A stretch of DNA of 64,000 bases from Minisyncoccia bacterium (GTDB taxonomy: Bacteria > Patescibacteriota > Minisyncoccia > Phycocordibacterales > UBA9973): contig CBFHKH010000001.1 in NCBI GenBank assembly GCA_965656375.1, forward strand, positions 132,691 through 196,690, read 5' to 3'. Positions 29,571-63,648 of this stretch are shown one piece after another; the first letter of the stretch is position 1, and each line of letters starts with the position of its first letter. A program made the position numbers and the translations under genes. The notes below the pieces were generated by a model. It searched no databases. It was not told the DNA's origin and saw only the letters and a program-made list of their open reading frames with translations.

Positions 29571-32500
29571 ATGAAAAATTACGATCATAGTAAAATTGAA
29601 AAAAAATGGCAGAAAGAGTGGGATAAGAAAAAGATCTATAAGACAGAATCTCCAAGTAAAAAAAAGAAATTCTACGTACTCGATATGTTTCCGTATCCGT
29701 CTGGTGCTGGACTCCATGTAGGTCATCCACGTGGGTATATTGGCTCTGATGTATACGCTCGTATGAAACGCATGCAAGGGTTCAATGTTCTTCATCCGAT
29801 GGGATATGACGCATTCGGTTTGCCTGCAGAGCAGTATGCAATTGAACACAAAATTCACCCTAAAAAGGCAGTCGACATAAATGTAGCCACATTCGAACGT
29901 CAGCTCTCTGTGATCGGCCTTTCGTATGATTGGTCTCGCAAAGTAAATACGACTGATCCCACGTACTACAAATGGACGCAGTGGATTTTTATCGAAATAT
30001 ATAATTCTTGGTATGACAATACAAAGAACAAAGCTCGACCGATCGGAGAGCTCGTAAAATTGTTTGAGCGTGATGGAAACAAAAAAATAGATGCGGTATG
30101 TGATGCGGCGTACTCAGATATATTCTCCGCGAATGAATGGAAAGGGTATAGTGATGTAGAGAAGCAAGACATACTCATGAAATATAGACTCGCATACGAA
30201 GGATATGCGCTTGTAAACTGGTGCCCAAAACTCGGCACTGTTCTTGCAAATGATGAAATCGTAGAAGACAAAGATGGCAACCAGGTCTCAGAACGTGGTG
30301 GATACCCGGTAGAGAAGCTTTCTATGCGTCAATGGTTTATGCGTATCACCGCATATGCTGATCGCTTGCTTACTGATCTCGAAGGGTTGAATTGGTCATC
30401 ACATATCAAAGAGATACAGAAAAATTGGATTGGAAAGAGCGAGGGAAGTGAGATCGAATTTAAAACCACTATCAATAGAACTGTGAAAATCTTTACCACA
30501 CGTGCGGATACACTTTTTGGTGTTACCTATGTAGTACTTTCACCAGAACATGCCAATATCGGAGAATTTATCGTGCAGTCACAAAACATGGCTGAAGCAT
30601 CAGCATATATCCGCGAAGCAAAAGAGCGAATGAAGAAAGAAGACATGCCTGCGCATGCAGGAAAGACTGGCATAGAACTCAAGGGTATCAAAGCTATCAA
30701 TCCAGCAAATGGGGAGGAAGTTCCTGTATGGATCGGGGACTATGTCCTTGCGAACTACGGTACTGGAGCTGTGATGGCTGTACCTGCACACGATGAGCGA
30801 GATTTTGAATTTGCGAAGAAATATAACTTGCCAATGAAGAGGGTGGTAGAACCAAAATTTGTATATTCGGAAGGTGAAGCTGCATATAGAGAAAAAGAAC
30901 CATATGTATACAGAGAGTGTATTTGTGCAATTGTGAGAAATCCAAAAGATGATACATATCTTTGTGTAAGCTGGAAAAAATTCAAGATGCATGGTCTAGT
31001 TACGGGAGGTATTGAAATTGGTGAGGATCCAATCGAAACTGCTAAGAGAGAGATCTATGAAGAAACAGGATATAAGAATGTAATTCTGACAAAAGATCCG
31101 AAATTTGGTCTTCAGACTTTTTTCTATCATCGTGTTAAAGAGATCAATAGACGGGCTCGATTTCAGTATCTTTTCTTTGATCTAGTTAATGAAGAACAAG
31201 ATCCATTAGCAAAGGAAGAATTTGATCTTCATGATGTTGTTTGGATTCCCAAAAATGAAATAAAAACTTTCTTTACTGTAGCCGAAGGCGAGTTTACATA
31301 CAATCTTATTGAGAATCCTGATTACATACACAAAGAAGATGGTATTTTATATTATTCTGGAAAATTTGATGGGATGGATTCTGATGAAGCCCGAAAGAAA
31401 ATCACGGAGGAGGTTGGCGGAAAAATAGTAACAAAATACAAAATGCGTGATGCGATATTTGCGCGCCAGCGATACTGGGGTGAGCCGATACCACTTAAGC
31501 ATGATAAGAAGACAGGCCTCACTTCTCCACTCAAGACAAAAGAATTACCACTCAAACTACCAAATGTAACCTCATACGAACCGACAGGTACCGGAGAGTC
31601 GCCACTTGCATCTGTGAATGCATGGGTAAAAAGTGGTTATGAGACTAATACAATGCCCGGCTGGGCAGGATCTTCATGGTACTTCCTGCGATATATGGAT
31701 CCAAAAAATTCTAAAGAATTCGCAAGCAAGAAATCGCTTGCGTACTGGAAAGATGTCGACATGTATATTGGTGGTCAGGAACATGCGACCGGGCATTTGC
31801 TCTACTCCCGCTTCTGGCACAAATTCCTCTATGATATGGGCTATGTTCCTACCAAGGAACCATTCAAGACGCTCAAGAACCAAGGTCTCATCATAGCTTC
31901 TGATGGACGCAAGATGAGTAAGCGATGGGGAAATGTGATCAACCCTGATGAAATAGTAAAAACATATGGAGCCGATACTCTCCGTGTATATGAAATGTTC
32001 ATAGGGCCATTTGATCAAACTGCACTTTGGAGCACTGAAAGTATAATTGGATCTCGGAGATTCATCGAGCGCGTCTATAGATTGCAAGAAAAGATAGTCA
32101 AGAAATATTCACATCCTTCGACTCTCGAGAAAGCACTTCACAAGACAATTAAAAAGGTCACAGAAGATATAGAAGGGATGAATTTTAATACAGCGATTTC
32201 TTCTATGATGGTATGCATCAATGAAGCAGACAAGGCAACAGAAATATCTCTTGATGACTTTAAAAAATTTTTACAAATCCTCGCACCATTTGCACCGCAT
32301 ATTGCAGAGGAGCTTTGGAATTCTTCAGGCGAGAAAAAATCTATACATACATCCGTATGGCCGAAGTGGGATAAGAAAAAAATCGTAGACGATACAGTGA
32401 CTATCGCTATTCAAGTCAACGGCAAATTGAGAGCAGAGCTCGTTATCCCTCTTGATATGGCAGAAGAAGATGTTCGAACTCTGGCACTTGGGGACAAGGC

Positions 32501-32579
32501 TATCGGAGGCTGGATAGAAGGCAAAGAAGTACGACGTGTGATTTATGTGAAAAATAGACTTATGAACATTGTTGTCTAG
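29571..32579 (+). CDS. leuS: Leucyl-tRNA synthetase with an inserted NUDIX hydrolase domain
   Basis: HIGH-type motif HVGH, CP1 editing motif TTRADTLFGV and KMSKRWGN. Between AHDERDFEFAKKYNLP and ARQRYWGEPIP sits an insert of about 170 aa with the Nudix box GGIEIGEDPIETAKREIYEETGY. Total length 1002 aa. Confidence 0.9.
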   Translation: MKNYDHSKIEKKWQKEWDKKKIYKTESPSKKKKFYVLDMFPYPSGAGLHVGHPRGYIGSDVYARMKRMQGFNVLHPMGYDAFGLPAEQYAIEHKIHPKKAVDINVATFERQLSVIGLSYDWSRKVNTTDPTYYKWTQWIFIEIYNSWYDNTKNKARPIGELVKLFERDGNKKIDAVCDAAYSDIFSANEWKGYSDVEKQDILMKYRLAYEGYALVNWCPKLGTVLANDEIVEDKDGNQVSERGGYPVEKLSMRQWFMRITAYADRLLTDLEGLNWSSHIKEIQKNWIGKSEGSEIEFKTTINRTVKIFTTRADTLFGVTYVVLSPEHANIGEFIVQSQNMAEASAYIREAKERMKKEDMPAHAGKTGIELKGIKAINPANGEEVPVWIGDYVLANYGTGAVMAVPAHDERDFEFAKKYNLPMKRVVEPKFVYSEGEAAYREKEPYVYRECICAIVRNPKDDTYLCVSWKKFKMHGLVTGGIEIGEDPIETAKREIYEETGYKNVILTKDPKFGLQTFFYHRVKEINRRARFQYLFFDLVNEEQDPLAKEEFDLHDVVWIPKNEIKTFFTVAEGEFTYNLIENPDYIHKEDGILYYSGKFDGMDSDEARKKITEEVGGKIVTKYKMRDAIFARQRYWGEPIPLKHDKKTGLTSPLKTKELPLKLPNVTSYEPTGTGESPLASVNAWVKSGYETNTMPGWAGSSWYFLRYMDPKNSKEFASKKSLAYWKDVDMYIGGQEHATGHLLYSRFWHKFLYDMGYVPTKEPFKTLKNQGLIIASDGRKMSKRWGNVINPDEIVKTYGADTLRVYEMFIGPFDQTALWSTESIIGSRRFIERVYRLQEKIVKKYSHPSTLEKALHKTIKKVTEDIEGMNFNTAISSMMVCINEADKATEISLDDFKKFLQILAPFAPHIAEELWNSSGEKKSIHTSVWPKWDKKKIVDDTVTIAIQVNGKLRAELVIPLDMAEEDVRTLALGDKAIGGWIEGKEVRRVIYVKNRLMNIVV

Positions 32580-43940: not shown

Positions 43941-44663
43941 TTAGCGTTCAACAGGAATACTGATAGTAGCATTTCCCATACGCTTTAACTTTTCAAAAAT
44001 AAGTATACTAATAATCGCGACGACCCATAACAATCCGAATACGCTCAAGAAGTTTTCACCGCTTCCTTTCATTATAAAAAAATTAAACACGCTGTGCAAT
44101 ACTATCGCACAGAGGAGTCCACACAGCATATATATACCTCTATATTGACGGATATAAAAAGAAAGACCAAGCGCGCTTCCGATGAGTCCGCTCGCAATCG
44201 CGTGAAGAAGCGTTGATCCCAGGAATCGAAGGTTGCCGGTAAGGAGGCCAACAACGGTGCCGTCGACAGCGAGTGGGCGAAGGAGGTAGAGGATATTTTC
44301 GAATGCTGCAAAGCCGAGCGCTACAGCGATGAAATACATCGGATAATCTATCGGTTCATCAACAACTGTTGTTCCGCTTATGATAATGAGAACACCAAGG
44401 AGTTTCAAAATCTCCTCGATAGTTGCCCATGCTACTATCTGAGTCGTATTATCAGGTAGGTAATTGAGAGAATACTTTTCCATCCATATCGCGATAAGTA
44501 CTATGATTCCGCCAAGAATGAATGAAAGTACGATGAGTCCACGCGGCTCTTTGTGGCCTTCGTCTTCTTCACGAAGCCAAAACCATAACCAAAATACTGC
44601 TGGCAATGCACCGCCGAGAACTGCAAATAACAATGTCTTTGGATCTTTAAGCAGTTCGATCAT
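43941..44663 (-). CDS. PrsW-family intramembrane metalloprotease-like protein
   Basis: TIEEILKLLG is the EExxK motif, AAFENILY is the FxxxE motif and LLHAIASG is the HxxxS motif. Multi-TM. Confidence 0.5.
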   Translation of the reverse strand: MIELLKDPKTLLFAVLGGALPAVFWLWFWLREEDEGHKEPRGLIVLSFILGGIIVLIAIWMEKYSLNYLPDNTTQIVAWATIEEILKLLGVLIIISGTTVVDEPIDYPMYFIAVALGFAAFENILYLLRPLAVDGTVVGLLTGNLRFLGSTLLHAIASGLIGSALGLSFYIRQYRGIYMLCGLLCAIVLHSVFNFFIMKGSGENFLSVFGLLWVVAIISILIFEKLKRMGNATISIPVER

Positions 44664-46857
44664 TGGAATGCCATTTTGTTACCATAAGTAAATTCTTGTC
44701 TTCGACTGGCCTGTCTGCGCAGGTGGACAAGAGTGACCAGATCTCTTCAGTTACGAACGGCATGAATGGATGGAGTGTGATCACTATCTTTGTGAGCGTT
44801 CCGAGTAAGAATTGTGCACGAGAATTTCTATCTTCATTGTCTGCTCCTTGGAGAATTGGTTTACTCTCTTCGATGATTACATCAGCAAATCGTGCCCAGG
44901 TGTACTGGTAAATCTTGTCTCCTGCGAGATAGAATTTATACTCTTCCATTTCTTTTGTAATCGTTTTTAGAATCTCATCTCTTTCATGGATAAGTTCCAT
45001 ATCTTTATTCGTGTATTTTTCGAACTGTGGATCGTAGGTAAGATTTTCTGTGTATGAGAGTACAAAGCGAGTAATATTCCAGAGTTTATTCGCATAGTTT
45101 TTGTATGCTTTTATTTTATCCTCACTCATTTTACTATCATTACCGGGTCCAGTTCCTATAATGAGCGACATACGCACTGCGTCGGCTCCATATTTTGCTA
45201 TGACATCAAGTGGATCGATGATATTACCAAGTGATTTTGACATCTTTCGTCCTTGTGCGTCACGGACAAGGCCGTGGAGATATACAGTCTTGAATGGGAT
45301 TTCACCCAAAATATATTGAGACATGAGAATCATACGTGCCACCCAGAAGAACAGGATGTCGTATCCAGTTTCGAGGATTGTTGTCGGATGATAGGTTTCT
45401 AGGTCTTTTGTTTTCTCTGGCCATCCAAGTGTTGAGAATGTCCACAGTCCCGATGAGAACCAAGTATCGAGTGTGTCTTCATCTTGAACCCATCCTTCTT
45501 CATCTGGCTCTTCAACTCCGCAGTATACTTCGGTGCCCTTATACCACACTGGAATTCGATGCCCGTACCAGATCTGGCGAGAGATACACCAGTCACGCAG
45601 ATTATCTACCCAGTTGAAATATACTCTCTCGAAGTGATCAGGAAGTATATCAATATCTTTATTGCGAATTGGTTCAAGCATTAACTCCTTGAGCGTTTTG
45701 TTATTTCGATCAGGAATCGGTTTGTTCACATTGATGAACCACTGATTCATAATTTGTGGTTCAATAACTGCTTCAGTACGTTCTGCTGTGGCTACGTTGT
45801 GAGTATAGTCTTCAATTTTCTCTACCAAGCCTTTTGATTCGAGTTTTTCGATGATCTTTGCTCTTGCGTCTTTGATCTTCATACCTCCAAATTCGCCAGC
45901 GATAGGGAGGAGCTTGCCGTACTTATCAATGATCTGCTCTTTGTCGAGATTGTGACGCTGTGCGATTTCAAAATCGACAGTACTATGCCATGGAGTGATA
46001 GTCATGACACCTGTACCGAATTCCATATCAATACTTTCATCTTTGATGATCGTTGCTTCTATTGGTCCGTTGATCCACTCGACGGTTATCTTGTCTCCAT
46101 GAGTGTATGTGCTGTATCTGGCATCATCAGGATGCATGACCACGTATTTATCTCCAAATTTTGTTTCTGGTCGTGCAGTACCGATGGTGAACGGTCCATA
46201 CTTTAGATAGTAGAACTTTGTCTTTTCTTCTTTGTATACCATCTCGTCGTCAGAGATTACTGTCTGGCCTTTTGGATCCCAGTTTACGATGCGGTGGCCA
46301 CGATAGATGAGTCCGTCATCGTACATTTTCTTAAATGCTGTGCGCACTGCAAAGTTACGTTTCTCGTCGAGCGTGAACGCTTCTCGTGACCAGTCGATAG
46401 ACGCACCCATTTTCTTCACTTGGGAGACGATTGTGTCATGGCTGTCTTGTGCAAATGTCTCTACTCGCTTGAGAAATTCTTCGCGACCAAGGTCACTTTT
46501 TCTCTTACCTTCTTCTTTCTCGATCAGCTTCTCAACTTTTGATTGCGTCGCGATTGCTGCGTGATCTGTTCCAGGAAGCCAGAGAGTTCGCTTTCCTTGC
46601 ATACGAGCGAAGCGGACCATGATATCTTCGATAACGAGCATAGCTGCATGGCCGATATGGAGTGTTCCCGTGACGTTTGGGGGAGGTAATACTATAGAGA
46701 ATGGTTCACCATCTGCTTTCGTTACTCCTTTCTCTATACAGATATCAGGATTAAAAAAACCACTCTCTTCCCAGAGTTTGTATATGCGGTCTTCAGTTTC
46801 ACCCGGATTATATGGAGAGAGGAGTTTTGGGTTTATATCAGGCATATCTTCTTTCAT
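44647..46857 (-). CDS. valS: Valyl-tRNA synthetase (short form lacking the C-terminal coiled coil)
   Basis: PPPNVTGTLHIGHA HIGH motif, KMSKSLGN, and editing-domain motifs. 736 aa. Confidence 0.9.
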   Translation of the reverse strand: MKEDMPDINPKLLSPYNPGETEDRIYKLWEESGFFNPDICIEKGVTKADGEPFSIVLPPPNVTGTLHIGHAAMLVIEDIMVRFARMQGKRTLWLPGTDHAAIATQSKVEKLIEKEEGKRKSDLGREEFLKRVETFAQDSHDTIVSQVKKMGASIDWSREAFTLDEKRNFAVRTAFKKMYDDGLIYRGHRIVNWDPKGQTVISDDEMVYKEEKTKFYYLKYGPFTIGTARPETKFGDKYVVMHPDDARYSTYTHGDKITVEWINGPIEATIIKDESIDMEFGTGVMTITPWHSTVDFEIAQRHNLDKEQIIDKYGKLLPIAGEFGGMKIKDARAKIIEKLESKGLVEKIEDYTHNVATAERTEAVIEPQIMNQWFINVNKPIPDRNNKTLKELMLEPIRNKDIDILPDHFERVYFNWVDNLRDWCISRQIWYGHRIPVWYKGTEVYCGVEEPDEEGWVQDEDTLDTWFSSGLWTFSTLGWPEKTKDLETYHPTTILETGYDILFFWVARMILMSQYILGEIPFKTVYLHGLVRDAQGRKMSKSLGNIIDPLDVIAKYGADAVRMSLIIGTGPGNDSKMSEDKIKAYKNYANKLWNITRFVLSYTENLTYDPQFEKYTNKDMELIHERDEILKTITKEMEEYKFYLAGDKIYQYTWARFADVIIEESKPILQGADNEDRNSRAQFLLGTLTKIVITLHPFMPFVTEEIWSLLSTCADRPVEDKNLLMVTKWHSNDRTA

Positions 46858-58644: not shown

Positions 58645-59778
58645 CTAAGCTCTTAATCGCTCCTTGAATCTCCTGATTACGAAGCCTTTCATGATGCGAT
58701 CTGTTGAGATCTTTTCTCGTAAGGATTTAAGGTATAAATGAATATCCTTCGGAAGATGCATCCCCAAGTATGGGTTGCTGCCTTCTAAAAATGCGATCAC
58801 TCGATTGCTTTTTGCTTGTAAGAGTGGCATGTATCCTTCAATGAAGACTTTGTTTTTTTGTGGAGTGTACTGTTCGCCTAAGGATTTTTCAAAAATATGC
58901 TTGATGATTCCATTGTATTTCATCTTTAGTTCACTTGATTGCCGTTGCAAATCAGTGAGAAGACATTCGGCTATATATTTATCCCGGTATTTATCCCGAT
59001 ACTGATTAAGTTCGTAGAAATATTGGGTCTGGATCTTTTTCCAAGGAGTCCTTTCTATTACAGTCTTCAACTTATACTTCTTGTCTTTAAAGGTCATGTA
59101 TCTCTTATCTGCATTCGGTACATCTTTCAGGGATTTATTTTTCAAGAAAATAAAGTGCCCGATAATAGCATTGAGCATTCCGTCATTGAAGTTTTGGATG
59201 ACAATAGCATTAAATCTGACATTATCTTTTAGGTCTTTTTCATACCAGATATATCCTTTTTCCTTATTCATTTTCCCATGAAGTTTTTTAAGCTTCATCT
59301 CTTCTGTGTCGCATAAGAAATAATTATTTCGGATTTTAATGATAATTAGGCCATGATCTGTAAAAGTGCCAAAGTTCAAGCCGAGAAAAATCTGATACGC
59401 ATGTTTGCTGGCTTGTAGGTATGAACCTAAAAGGATAGCCCTCCCAAGACAATTGAAACCTATCGTTTCCTTATATTTCTCTCTTGTGGCAAGTCTAGGG
59501 GTAAATCCGCTTCCATAACGGATATGATATGTCGAGGTCCACATAACTGTACCTATATAGCTTTTTTCTACAAAACTCTCTATACGTTTGTTTCCATATC
59601 CTATTGCATTTTCTAAATAATCGCCTTCGAGGATATCACCCAAGGCAAGGATATATTTAGAAGTATGAAGGAAATCTCTCAGGATTTCATCGACGAGGCT
59701 TTTGACATCAAAAACCTCACTTTGTGTACGCTTCACTACGAACACTAATTTATTCATTGCATGAAGTAGTTTTTCCAT
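58645..59778 (-). CDS. Hypothetical protein (377 aa)
   Basis: Long ORF with coding-like composition and no recognised motif. Confidence 0.4.
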   Translation of the reverse strand: MEKLLHAMNKLVFVVKRTQSEVFDVKSLVDEILRDFLHTSKYILALGDILEGDYLENAIGYGNKRIESFVEKSYIGTVMWTSTYHIRYGSGFTPRLATREKYKETIGFNCLGRAILLGSYLQASKHAYQIFLGLNFGTFTDHGLIIIKIRNNYFLCDTEEMKLKKLHGKMNKEKGYIWYEKDLKDNVRFNAIVIQNFNDGMLNAIIGHFIFLKNKSLKDVPNADKRYMTFKDKKYKLKTVIERTPWKKIQTQYFYELNQYRDKYRDKYIAECLLTDLQRQSSELKMKYNGIIKHIFEKSLGEQYTPQKNKVFIEGYMPLLQAKSNRVIAFLEGSNPYLGMHLPKDIHLYLKSLREKISTDRIMKGFVIRRFKERLRA

Positions 59779-59936: not shown

Positions 59937-60410
59937 ATGCCGATTATGGATGAAATACATTACATTACAGAAGAAAAGAAACAATCATTAATCGAAGAAT
60001 TAAATCATTTAAAGACCGTAAAACGCAAGGAAATCCTTGAGGCGCTTGAAGCTGCAAAAGCACTCGGTGACCTGTCTGAAAATGCCGAATATCACCAGGC
60101 ACGCGAAGATCAAGGTAAAACTGAAGATCGTATCAATCAGATCGACTTCATGCTCCAAAATGCAGTTGTGGTGAAGAAGCATCATAGTACAAAAGTAGAG
60201 ATTGGTACGACTATCGATGTCAAAAAAGAAGGATCAAAGGAAATTGTTACCTACAGCATTGTCGGCGCTGAAGAAGCTGACATGGCTGCGAACAAAATCT
60301 CTAACAAGTCTCCACTCGGAGAAGCGCTTTTTGGTAAATCAAAAAATGATGTGGTGTCTATCACCACTCCAAAGGGGCTGGTCAAGTATACTATAGTTAA
60401 GATACAATAG
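59937..60410 (+). CDS. greA: Transcription elongation factor GreA
   Basis: An N-terminal coiled coil and a C-terminal FKBP-like domain (IVGAEEAD...SPLGEALFGK). Confidence 0.8.
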   Translation: MPIMDEIHYITEEKKQSLIEELNHLKTVKRKEILEALEAAKALGDLSENAEYHQAREDQGKTEDRINQIDFMLQNAVVVKKHHSTKVEIGTTIDVKKEGSKEIVTYSIVGAEEADMAANKISNKSPLGEALFGKSKNDVVSITTPKGLVKYTIVKIQ

Positions 60411-60541: not shown

Positions 60542-62464
60542 ATGGCTTCACTCGAAGAATTACGAAACGCACGTGTCCAAAAAATTAAACTCTTACAAGA
60601 AGCAGGTATGGACCCATACCCGGCTTCTGTCCCGCGTGATTACTCAATAGAGTATGTTAAGCAATCTTTTGATACACTCGCTCCTACTTCAGAAGAAACG
60701 AATATCTCAATTGTAGGAAGAGTTATGGCAGTGCGTGGTCAAGGAGCAATACTCTTCATTGTGCTTCAAGACGGTACCAGTAGACTGCAAGCGGTCCTCA
60801 AAAAGGATTCTTTAGATGAAGATTCATTTAATCTTTTTGTAAATACGATTGATAATGGCGATTTTGTTTCTGTTACTGGCTCTTTATTTGTAACTGAGAG
60901 AGGGGAACAAAGTATCCTGATAAAGGAATGGATGATGGCTACCAAGGCTCTGCTTCCATTACCTGATAAATGGCATGGGCTCCAAAACATAGAAGAAACA
61001 TACAGAAAGAGATATTTAGATATTGTGATGGATAGCGAAGTGTACAAGAGATTTGCACTTCGATCTAACATTATAAAATCGATACGAACATTTTTTGATG
61101 CTAAGAATTTTCTTGAAATAGAAACTCCTATTTTGCAAAACCAAGCCGGTGGAGCCATGGCTGAGACATTCAACACCTACCATAATGATTACAGTATGGA
61201 TATGGTACTTCGCATCGCGCTTGAACTCGAACATAAAATGATCATGACAGGGGGATACGAACGAGTATATGAAATAGGCAAGAATTTTAGAAATGAAGGT
61301 TCAGACCCAACGCACTTACAAGAATTCACCATGATAGAGTGGTATGCCGCATATGAAACACTTGAGACAAATATGAAATGGACTGAAGAGCTCATCAAGT
61401 CTATTGCAGCTGATGTCATGGGAAAAAATACGTTCACTGTGTACGACAATGACGGTACTGCTGTCGATGTAGATATTAGCGTTGAGTGGCCTCGCATAAC
61501 ATTCGGAGAATTGCTACAAAAAGATGCAGGTATCAATATTGAAACTATAACGCTCCAAGAAGCACAGCGCGAAGCGCTCAAGTGGGGTATCGCAGAAGAT
61601 GAAGTCAAAAAATTAGGACGCGGTAATTTGCTTGATAAAATTTACAAGAAATCTTCTCGAAAAAAGATCATTAATCCTACATTTGTTACAGATTTTCCTG
61701 GAGACCTCAAGCCTCTCGCTCAGCAGAATCCAAATGGTACGGCAAAGGTATGCCAGCTTATCATCGCTGGGGCAGAAATCACAAATCAATATGCTGAACT
61801 CGTGAATCCGCTCATTCAACGGGAATTGCTCGTGTCGCAATCACTGGCAAAGGAAAATGGAGACGCTGAAGCAATGGATGTAAGTGAAACGTTCCTTACT
61901 GCTATGGAGCATGGAATGCCTCCGATGACTGGGTTTGGTATGGGTATTGATCGGCTCGTTTCAATATTTACTGAGCAAAAAAATCTACGTGATGTGATAT
62001 TTTTCCCCATAATGAGGCCCGAGAATTCAGTGGCACGTAAGAAGAAAGAAACAATGCTTGCGGTAGCAGTTCTAAATACAGGTGCTTCACTTCTTCCATG
62101 GCAGGAACTCAACACCATTGCGCATTTAAATGCTGCGTTTGGCGCACATGTAGGAAAGGAACTATTTACAAAAGATTTCGTTACTTCAAAGGATAATCAG
62201 AAGATAAAGCTCAATATACAAAACGCAATTGTTATTAAAAAGACGGCAGATGCAGAAGCGCTCCGCAGAGTTGTTCTTGATGCACAGAAGGGTGGACTGG
62301 AAGTAGATGAATTCACACGTGAAATGTTAGAGACTACGAACGACAAGAAAATCACTGAGATCACAGCAGCTAAGAATTTTGATGAAATTGAATATCTCGG
62401 AGTTTTGATATACGGCCCTAAAAATTCTGTTGAGGAAATTACATCTCAATTCGAACGGTACTAA
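60542..62464 (+). CDS. lysS: Class II lysyl-tRNA synthetase with a C-terminal extension of about 135 aa (DUF2000/PTH2-like)
   Basis: An OB anticodon-binding domain followed by class II motifs (FRNEG..., GMGIDRLV). The core ends near FFPIMRP. The extra tail contains LLPWQELNTIAHLNAAFGA. Confidence 0.85.
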   Translation: MASLEELRNARVQKIKLLQEAGMDPYPASVPRDYSIEYVKQSFDTLAPTSEETNISIVGRVMAVRGQGAILFIVLQDGTSRLQAVLKKDSLDEDSFNLFVNTIDNGDFVSVTGSLFVTERGEQSILIKEWMMATKALLPLPDKWHGLQNIEETYRKRYLDIVMDSEVYKRFALRSNIIKSIRTFFDAKNFLEIETPILQNQAGGAMAETFNTYHNDYSMDMVLRIALELEHKMIMTGGYERVYEIGKNFRNEGSDPTHLQEFTMIEWYAAYETLETNMKWTEELIKSIAADVMGKNTFTVYDNDGTAVDVDISVEWPRITFGELLQKDAGINIETITLQEAQREALKWGIAEDEVKKLGRGNLLDKIYKKSSRKKIINPTFVTDFPGDLKPLAQQNPNGTAKVCQLIIAGAEITNQYAELVNPLIQRELLVSQSLAKENGDAEAMDVSETFLTAMEHGMPPMTGFGMGIDRLVSIFTEQKNLRDVIFFPIMRPENSVARKKKETMLAVAVLNTGASLLPWQELNTIAHLNAAFGAHVGKELFTKDFVTSKDNQKIKLNIQNAIVIKKTADAEALRRVVLDAQKGGLEVDEFTREMLETTNDKKITEITAAKNFDEIEYLGVLIYGPKNSVEEITSQFERY

Positions 62465-63125
62465 TAAATTCCCTGAAATAAAAAAGATCTGCAGTTAGAC
62501 TGCAGATCTTTCCGTTAAAAACGATTATGAGGTACATACAAGTACATATACAAAGCTCGGGCTTTGCTTCTTAAAGCAAAGAAAGCAGTATTTGCTTTTT
62601 TCTTGAAAAGCCCGTTTCTTTTTTCTACGATTAAATACCGTATCAAATCTGGAAGGATCAAATTCCATTCTCGATCACTTATCTCAAGTAAGCTTTTTCT
62701 AATCGTTCCTAGCAGCCACACTGAGTACGTGACATCACTTTTCATAGATGTGATTTGTAAATGTAGATCAATTAAAAGAATAACGTTACATTTTTCGGTG
62801 GGCGCAAGTGAATGGGTATGCATCCAGGCCGGATTTGTGCTATATTTCTTTCTTTTAAAATTGCTTCATCCAGGTGATGTTTTGCAAAATGATAGTCAAG
62901 CTGATCTTTATTACTCTGAAGCTGGTTATTATTGTACGGCAAAAGTGTAAGTGCCTTATCGCTCAGTACAAAGACATACATAAAAGGAATTTTCATAATT
63001 GCAATTTTTTGATTTAAAATTTATTTTCTTTCTATTAGAATACCACACAACTAATTAAATTTCAAGTCAAGTAGCTTCTGCATTGTTCGTTATCCACAGT
63101 TTTCTGGGGGATTTTTGTTTGTATT

Positions 63126-63213: not shown

Positions 63214-63648
63214 ATGCTTATCGGCGAATTCACTCACACACTAGACGACAAGAACCGCATGTCATTGCCGGTGAAGTTTCGCAAAGAGATGGGGAAGAAG
63301 GTAGTAGTTGCTCCTGGGCTTGATAACTGCCTTTCTATATTTACCGTAAAGGAATGGGAGAAGATCACAAGCAAACTCTCTGACTCCTCGATGCTCGCAT
63401 CTGATAATCGTAGTTTCTCGAGATTTATGTTTGGTCAGGCAGTCGATGTAGATGTCGATGCAAACGGCCGAATATTGATCCCGGAAAATTTAAAAACTCG
63501 TTCAGGACTTTCTTCAAAAGTGATCGTCATCGGAGTGCAGAACCGCGCAGAAATCTGGAACGAGAAAGCATGGAATGACTACAAGCGTGTTGTAGACGGA
63601 CAGGCAGACGCCCTCGCAGATAAATTAGGGCAAATAGGAGTTCTTTAA
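63214..63648 (+). CDS. mraZ: Division/cell-wall cluster transcriptional regulator MraZ
   Basis: MLIGEFTHTLDDKNRMSLPVKFRK and a second DxxxR repeat. Confidence 0.85.
   Translation: MLIGEFTHTLDDKNRMSLPVKFRKEMGKKVVVAPGLDNCLSIFTVKEWEKITSKLSDSSMLASDNRSFSRFMFGQAVDVDVDANGRILIPENLKTRSGLSSKVIVIGVQNRAEIWNEKAWNDYKRVVDGQADALADKLGQIGVL

Follow-up and report, generated by a model that had tools for sequence, protein, structure and literature searches.

What does a second, hydrolase-like domain do at the C-terminus of a class II lysyl-tRNA synthetase (LysRS)? This question is raised by a gene, here called lysS-DUF2000, in a 64,000-nucleotide stretch (the window) of contig CBFHKH010000001.1 from a Minisyncoccia bacterium. 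The gene is a complete open reading frame (ORF) on the forward strand (window 60542..62464), running from ATG to stop and encoding 640 amino acids plus the stop codon. As judged from profile matches and structural models, its product is a class II LysRS to whose C-terminus a DUF2000 domain is flexibly tethered. Peptidyl-tRNA hydrolase 2 (PTH2) is a remote structural relative of DUF2000, and the evidence set out below points, tentatively, to a module that would act in cis on the tRNA served by the attached synthetase.

The synthetase core (residues 1–494, 60542..62023) matches the lysine--tRNA ligase model NF001756 with 521.5 bits (cut-off 468), residues 6–494 aligning with model positions 2–488 of 488, and the LysRS model TIGR00499 with 459.7 bits against a cut-off of 427.6. 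Its Pfam architecture is that of LysRS, with an OB-fold anticodon-binding domain (PF01336, E = 2.5e-14; residues 55–131, 60704..60934) followed by the class II catalytic domain (PF00152, E = 5.7e-71, profile positions 3–307 of 308; residues 151–491, 60992..62014). We propose that the LysRS part is a working enzyme and that the tail folds independently. The original prediction, made from the sequence alone, had rightly divided the protein into a LysRS core and a tail, and the coordinates it gave the tail, 62051–62464, correspond to residues 504–640 plus the stop codon. It had ended the core at about residue 503, with FFPIMRP; that motif occupies residues 487–493, and the LysRS models end at residue 494. 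Its estimate of roughly 135 residues for the tail holds for the domain itself (134 residues, 507–640; 62060..62461), the whole extension coming to 146 when the linker is counted. The linker, NSVARKKKETML (residues 495–506, 62024..62059), is lysine-rich and predicted to be disordered, and the 640-residue translation includes FFPIMRP, VAVLNTG and LLPWQELNTIAHLNAAFGAHVG.

The resemblance to DUF2000 noticed at the outset is borne out by profile searches, at a level far above chance. The tail alone matches PF09391 with 74.4 bits and E = 1.1e-20 (cut-off 25) over profile positions 5–130 of 133, and a profile of 71 homologous tails finds PDB entry 2gax (Atu0240), the structural-genomics representative of DUF2000, at E = 2.2e-20. 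Atu0240 is about 22% identical to the tail, and differs from it in belonging to a free-standing ‘NVTAF’ clade that is found in AraC/LysE neighbourhoods and is not fused to LysRS. The AlphaFold model of the tail has a regular α/β topology, with a mean predicted local distance difference test score (pLDDT) of 92.6 and a predicted template modelling score (pTM) of 0.82, and its structural matches are 2gax first and then PTH2 structures only. The tail therefore has both the 2GAX fold of DUF2000 and the α/β fold of PTH2, as had been predicted, and the alternative that it might be a low-complexity linker is rejected by the PF09391 match and the regular α/β model. Neither family nor structure matching related the tail to the known editing folds of aminoacyl-tRNA synthetases (aaRSs), namely CP1, INS/YbaK, AlaX/SAD, B3/4 and DTD-like, and comparison with PADLOC and PHROGs, which cover anti-phage defence and phage families, gave no matches.

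Across DUF2000 as a whole, only three positions are invariant (W14, N18 and G114, corresponding to W520, N524 and G620 in the window protein), with a further five nearly so (Q15, T86, T92, D95 and G119; here Q521, T592, T598, D601 and G625). Conservation is far broader among 74 orthologues fused to LysRS, in which W520, N524, H528, L529, N558, F591, M595, D601, K603, K611, G620 and G625 are invariant, and N512, T525, D551, K566, E594 and T598 are at least 95% conserved, K566 reaching 99%. Many of these residues belong to four motifs, all encoded on the forward strand: W520-Q-E-L-N524-T-I-A-H528-L529 at the start of helix α1 (62099..62128); L557-N558-I-Q-N-A-I-V-I-K566 in strand β2 and the loop preceding it (62210..62239); F591-T-R-E594-M595-L-E-T598-T-N-D601-K-K603 in the loop and short helices after β3 (62312..62350); and G620-V-L-I-Y-G625 in strand β4 (62399..62416). 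On the evidence of the alignment, this pattern is that of a specific pocket rather than a spacer.

Where that putative pocket lies can be seen by comparison with PTH2. Reference sequences taken from PDB alignments were aligned to find the invariant positions of PTH2, which in S. solfataricus numbering are the GKGK loop (K18), Q22, H25 and D86-x-G88-x-T90, residues reportedly involved in catalysis. The W520–L529 motif is topologically equivalent to the PTH2 segment GKGK..AQ..H, the F591–K603 motif occupies, with an insertion relative to PTH2, the position of the D86-A-G-x-T90 loop, and G620-V-L-I-Y-G625 is equivalent to the G-I-G-P of PTH2. The conserved residues of DUF2000 thus occupy, topologically, the two invariant sites of PTH2, at the start of helix 1 and in the loop after strand 3, and from this equivalence, and superposition with PTH2, they would be expected to lie close together in space.

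The two families are nonetheless well separated. The window protein has no Pfam match to PF01981 (PTH2) at E up to 1, the DUF2000 profile built from 71 sequences retrieves none of the PTH2 chains in the PDB at E up to 10, and profile-profile alignment of DUF2000 with PTH2 (hhalign) is collinear but weak (E = 2e-4 and 1.3e-5). Only the His of the PTH2 invariants is retained in the tail, as H528; in the DUF2000 alignment the GKGK loop lies within a deletion, and the D-x-G-x-T loop is replaced by F-T-x-E-M-x-x-T-T-x-D-x-K and an inserted helix. In the AlphaFold model of the tail a β-hairpin replaces the second helix of PTH2, and an extra helix (residues 601–609) is inserted after β3. PTH2 enzymes, such as those of P. 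horikoshii (1WN2) and S. solfataricus (1XTY) and human Bit1/PTRH2 (1Q7S), are also free-standing, whereas the tail is fused to an aaRS.

The fusion is no peculiarity of this lineage. An exhaustive HMMER search with the tail against 1.84 billion representative proteins gave 119 matches, and every long match has a class II LysRS core, save a few apparent chimeras with partial domains; among the long matches, identity is 30–49% in the core and 27–55% in the tail. In a scan of GTDB species genomes, at least 125 encode the tail subfamily, and the LysRS-DUF2000 fusion was present in all 80 of the loci examined, LysRS being the exclusive partner. The bacterial hosts span many phyla of the candidate phyla radiation (CPR), including Paceibacterota and Nomura-, Doudna-, Wolfe-, Taylor-, Morani-, Peregrini-, Kuenen- and Gracilibacteria, and the archaeal hosts are DPANN, comprising Woesearchaeota (including a complete genome), Nanoarchaeota and Aenigmarchaeota. 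Inspection of other CPR LysRSs, which had been recommended as a check, hence revealed the tail widely. The original interpretation is supported in part; its idea of a lineage-specific remodelling of aaRSs does not agree with this breadth or with the clean loss of the tail in the closest relatives described below.

Two phylogenies bear on how the fusion spread. A neighbour-joining tree of LysRS cores places the archaeal fusions within the bacterial/CPR sequences, in two groups, and because of this nesting we suggest that the whole fused gene may have been transferred between CPR and DPANN. The DPANN loci with a bacterial-type class II LysRS-DUF2000 are L021, L026, L028, L030, L036, L039, L043, L044, L046, L047, L055, L057, L062, L064, L078, L083 and L085. 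In a neighbour-joining tree of the DUF2000 domains, LysRS-fused members fall in at least three clades, which are interleaved with genuine free-standing proteins of about 140 amino acids, so that fusion or fission has occurred repeatedly. In Gracilibacteria, the fusion genes (L041 1-1830 and L056 416-2455) are broken by TGA codons under translation table 11 and continuous under code 25, with seven and four in-frame UGA codons, respectively, reading frames that are consistent with UGA being read as Gly.

An artefact joining lysS to a separate downstream gene, whether by mis-assembly, frameshift or stop read-through, has a negligible probability. It could draw on one Kuenenbacteria contig in which the gene is split by a 1-nucleotide deletion, and on several ‘stand-alone’ gene calls of 119–152 amino acids. 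Against this, an independent Logan assembly encodes the identical 640-residue ORF, an 840 kb NCBI contig encodes a 100% identical protein (P0019), and the same architecture is intact in 74 full-length orthologues drawn from separate GTDB species genomes; the short calls come from contigs of about 1 kb and take an internal Met as their start. The artefact was accordingly rejected on the strength of the Logan assembly and the orthologues. Also rejected was the idea that the 119–152-residue CPR ‘stand-alone’ DUF2000 genes form a split gene pair with lysS, these being internal-Met gene calls or the product of a 1-nucleotide frameshift. The deletion in the Kuenenbacteria metagenome-assembled genome (JACQWZ010000090; L001/L048 2130-2400, and L002) falls within the domain, where it removes a nucleotide from the Pro codon that precedes the conserved Trp (aag cc tgg gaa gaa atg), and yields a 521-residue LysRS and a 119-residue ‘DUF2000 family protein’ overlapping by 4 nucleotides. 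The split sequence is also found in a Logan assembly, and could reflect pseudogenisation of the tail, an error in sequencing or programmed frameshifting.

Loss of the tail is as well documented as its presence. In the Nomurabacteria/Paceibacteria group tailed genes are basal and scattered, and the nearest tail-less cores are 84–86% identical to that of the window, the nearest tailed relative being 87% identical. The tail-less relatives keep the greA-lysS-mraZ-rsmH synteny and end exactly at the junction, with FFPIMRPKE followed by the stop codon, and tblastn detects no remnant of the tail in them (E = 0.68). Similarity by blastn to two of them (L094 and L095) ends at window position 62019 and resumes at 63089, leaving a stretch without counterpart (62020..63088) that comprises the tail DNA and about 625 nucleotides of intergenic sequence. 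As these relatives stop at the junction, keep the synteny and hold no remnant, the domain appears to be a cleanly removable accessory module, which, by this comparison of sequences, the closest relatives have lost cleanly. The intergenic part (62465..63088) contains only short unannotated ORFs, for example one of 102 amino acids on the reverse strand (62515..62823) with no Pfam family on record, and gave no match in Rfam.

Clues to function come from the domains that share a chain with the fusion and from the neighbourhoods of free-standing DUF2000 proteins. An AlaX/AlaXM-type (tRNA_SAD) domain is present on the LysRS-DUF2000 chain in P0154 and archaeal L026, a B3/4 domain lies between LysRS and DUF2000 in P0215, and an HD/HDIG domain is present in P0141, P0142, P0151, Doudnabacteria L038, Moranbacteria L045 and archaeal L046, such that the longer multi-domain architectures are found in CPR bacteria and DPANN archaea alike. 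Deacylation of aminoacyl-tRNA is well established for AlaX-type and B3/4 domains; CtdA, a stand-alone B3/B4 protein, deacylates canavanyl-tRNA-Arg, in which the tRNA carries a toxic analogue (PMC10018355, PMC12449066). Among the free-standing loci examined (L086-L093, L097, L098 and L099), DUF2000 adjoins an AraC-type regulator in each of five genera (Staphylococcus, Streptomyces, Pelosinus, Clostridium and Brevibacterium) and has a LysE-family amino-acid exporter nearby in three of the five, Pelosinus and Clostridium having a co-directional LysE-AraC-DUF2000 operon. A sixth free-standing DUF2000 lies in an operon after a MarR-GNAT fusion and before CN_hydrolase. Small modules for detoxifying an amino acid or analogue are typically laid out in this way.

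Taken together, these data favour a reading, with a probability of about 0.45, in which the tail would hydrolyse, in cis, the 3′ ester of tRNA-Lys that is mis-acylated or N-blocked. The tail would act on the same tRNA as the attached synthetase: after aminoacylation, the flexible 3′ CCA end of tRNA-Lys would swing from the synthetic site to a DUF2000 pocket formed by the N524/H528 end of helix α1 and the E594-M595...T598...D601-K603 loop, where the ester of a wrong product would be hydrolysed to give free tRNA-Lys for recharging. The wrong product might be a non-cognate aminoacyl-tRNA-Lys, or N-blocked or peptidyl-tRNA-Lys, and the domain would be an accessory quality-control or recycling module, dispensable for aminoacylation itself. 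Catalysis by the domain, an ester of tRNA-Lys as its substrate, and which ester this would be, are what we infer.

Of the possible esters, that of mis-acylated tRNA-Lys is favoured over peptidyl-tRNA, post-transfer editing being supported by the co-fused editing domains and the exporter context. A recycler akin to Pth has its own attraction, because E. coli deficient in Pth is limited by Lys-tRNA-Lys in particular (Heurgue-Hamard 1996, as cited in PMC11994314) and because Lys is common in the ORFs of the window, where it is the third commonest residue (8.6%, with 66% AAA codons). A tblastn search with E. coli Pth found nothing convincing in the 64-kb window, a result that is uninformative for a genome of ~840 kb. 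A bolder version, which we consider doubtful, is that DUF2000 constitutes a new class of aminoacyl-tRNA deacylase with the PTH2 fold, dedicated to tRNA-Lys and editing in cis in CPR and DPANN and in trans in Firmicutes and Actinobacteria. In CPR and DPANN, DUF2000 would then be the missing post-transfer editing domain of class II LysRS, and the trans form would stand under an AraC regulator, next to a LysE-type exporter through which the toxic lysine analogue leaves the cell once released.

Several observations weigh against a cis-acting hydrolase. Hydrolase activity cannot be transferred by homology, because K18 and D86-x-G88-x-T90 of PTH2 are not conserved. H528 is invariant in the LysRS-fused clade and is Phe in a large free-standing Atu0240-like clade, so that a His-based mechanism is not family-wide. 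The tail domain is mildly acidic (isoelectric point (pI) 5.2, net charge −4), whereas PTH2 is basic, four of the five enzymes compared having a pI of about 9; such acidity is unusual in an RNA binder, though a cis domain would need to bind just the CCA end. In the full-length AlphaFold monomer, pTM is 0.62 and the tail is not confidently docked near the active site, residues 485–502, in the linker region, having pLDDT < 50. This model is compatible with a mobile tethered module, although the reach of the tail to the tRNA is not thereby established. The repeated loss of the tail indicates that cells do well without it, the AraC/LysE context suits a small-molecule role equally well, and a search of the literature turned up no paper on DUF2000, Atu0240, PF09391 or a PTH2-like domain on an aaRS, and no biochemistry of any DUF2000 protein. 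We set the probability no higher than the level given above because the PTH2 catalytic residues are missing, the surface is acidic, the His is not universal and biochemistry is wholly absent.

The same observations lend themselves to other explanations. The domain might bind an amino acid or related compound without hydrolysing it, modulating LysRS allosterically and, in free-living bacteria, serving in an amino-acid export circuit; this seems rather unlikely, even though the absence of the PTH2 catalytic residues, the acidic pI, the dispensability of the tail and the tight linkage of free-standing DUF2000 to AraC regulators and LysE-family exporters would all be accommodated, and the conserved pocket residues could equally form a binding site. 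The adjoining AraC regulators already carry a ligand-binding cupin domain of their own (PF02311), the AlaX-type, B3/4 and HD hydrolase additions on the same chain would be left unexplained, and the characterised members of the PTH2-like fold are all hydrolases. Were the domain instead to hydrolyse an ester or anhydride other than tRNA, one produced by LysRS or chemically akin to its substrates, candidates would include a lactone, thiolactone or lactam from LysRS pre-transfer editing, aminoacyl-AMP and diadenosine tetraphosphate (Ap4A). LysRS is a known producer of Ap4A, the LysE family, members of which lie near free-standing DUF2000, includes exporters of homoserine and homoserine lactone, the fold is that of an esterase family, and the domain is acidic with no obvious RNA-binding surface. 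We nevertheless regard this as improbable, since no nucleotide-binding motif is indicated, phosphohydrolase chemistry, where plausible, comes with an HD domain of its own, and the co-fused AlaX-type and B3/4 domains target aminoacyl-tRNA, not small molecules.

A non-catalytic role has about as slim a prospect, with the tail mediating dimerisation or binding the tRNA acceptor end, and so raising tRNA affinity or passing Lys-tRNA-Lys to a partner. Many aaRSs carry appended tRNA-binding domains, and the linker is Lys-rich (KKK). LysRS is a dimer and PTH2 a homodimer (PMC11994314), which would allow two tails to pair. The invariant polar residues N524, H528, N558, E594 and D601, of a buried-pocket type, exceed the usual needs of a scaffold; the domain is acidic; and the closest relatives have lost the tail with no compensating change in a core that remains 84–86% identical. 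Very improbable is an aminoacyl-transferase that would use Lys-tRNA-Lys from the attached synthetase to lysylate another acceptor. By analogy, LysX offers a precedent for LysRS fused to an enzyme that consumes Lys-tRNA, and the gene sits among cell-wall genes; this synteny, however, is identical in the tail-less relatives, the same fusion occurs in DPANN archaea, which have no peptidoglycan, and no transferase is known with a PTH2-like fold.

The surroundings of lysS-DUF2000 in the window are as follows. The upstream neighbour, greA (59937..60410), lies on the same strand as lysS, and downstream mraZ (63214..63648), also on the forward strand, begins the dcw cluster. Upstream of greA, a 377-residue ORF on the reverse strand (58645..59778) is without a Pfam family and is also present in the Logan assembly. 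Around the gene, searches for regulatory RNAs, terminators and promoter signals gave no Rfam matches and pattern counts at the level of shuffled sequence. Elsewhere in the window, the leucyl-tRNA synthetase (LeuRS; 29571..32579, forward strand; 1002 amino acids, TIGR00396 912 bits) has a NUDIX domain (PF00293, residues 448–567, E = 4e-13) inserted directly after its CP1 editing domain (PF13603, residues 284–431), confirming a LeuRS-Nudix fusion noticed earlier and making LeuRS the second aaRS of this genome with an appended hydrolase-type domain. The valyl-tRNA synthetase (44647..46857, reverse strand; 736 amino acids), which matches positions 4–698 of 860 of its curated model, appears from this match to be without the usual C-terminal domain. 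Among the LysRS-DUF2000 orthologues, P0166, P0170, L017, L023 and L007 have N-terminal extensions of about 60–155 residues before the OB domain, with no Pfam match.

Proofreading of aminoacyl-tRNAs is known for few protein folds, and class II LysRS is regarded as using pre-transfer editing alone; we know of no reported post-transfer editing domain in this enzyme. A PTH2-fold domain fused only to LysRS is a strong and testable candidate for tRNA-Lys quality control or recycling, because it is conserved across CPR and DPANN, the two large radiations of ultra-small symbionts, repeatedly fused and lost, and sometimes accompanied by AlaX-type, B3/4 or HD domains, and it may represent a new kind of tRNA-Lys clean-up module. 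If this is so, it would provide DUF2000, which has thousands of members and a crystal structure dating from 2006, with its first function, extend the short list of aaRS editing domains by a new fold, and explain the conserved AraC-LysE-DUF2000 modules of Gram-positive bacteria. The fused gene common to CPR bacteria and DPANN archaea would also be a further case of gene exchange between the two. Automatic annotation in public databases already assigns PF00152 and PF09391 to LysRS-DUF2000 proteins. LysRS-PTH2-like fusions are not mentioned in the CtdA papers, in Burroughs and Aravind (2019), in the paper on deacylase-guided discovery or in the survey of archaeal fusions.

Set beside known systems, the fusion resembles the aaRS editing domains and trans-editing factors (AlaX/tRNA_SAD, PheRS B3/4, CtdA, YbaK/ProXp and DTD), in which a small hydrolase is likewise tied to one aaRS; like LysRS-linked DUF2000, these are sporadic, dispensable, and occur both in cis and in trans, whereas their folds are unrelated to the PTH2-like fold of the tail. 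LysX, the mycobacterial MprF-LysRS, offers a second parallel, as a class II LysRS fused to another domain that acts on Lys-tRNA-Lys. Its partner is an N-terminal membrane lysyl-phosphatidylglycerol synthase, whereas here the domain is C-terminal, soluble and of the PTH2 fold; the LysX model NF002821 matches the window protein over its LysRS part only (model positions 619–1101; 473 bits, below the cut-off of 742), the N-terminal MprF lysyl-phosphatidylglycerol synthase domain being absent. An aaRS with an appended hydrolase-fold domain is of a known kind, while the PTH2-like fold on LysRS, its breadth across CPR and DPANN, and its multi-domain variants are new and uncharacterised.

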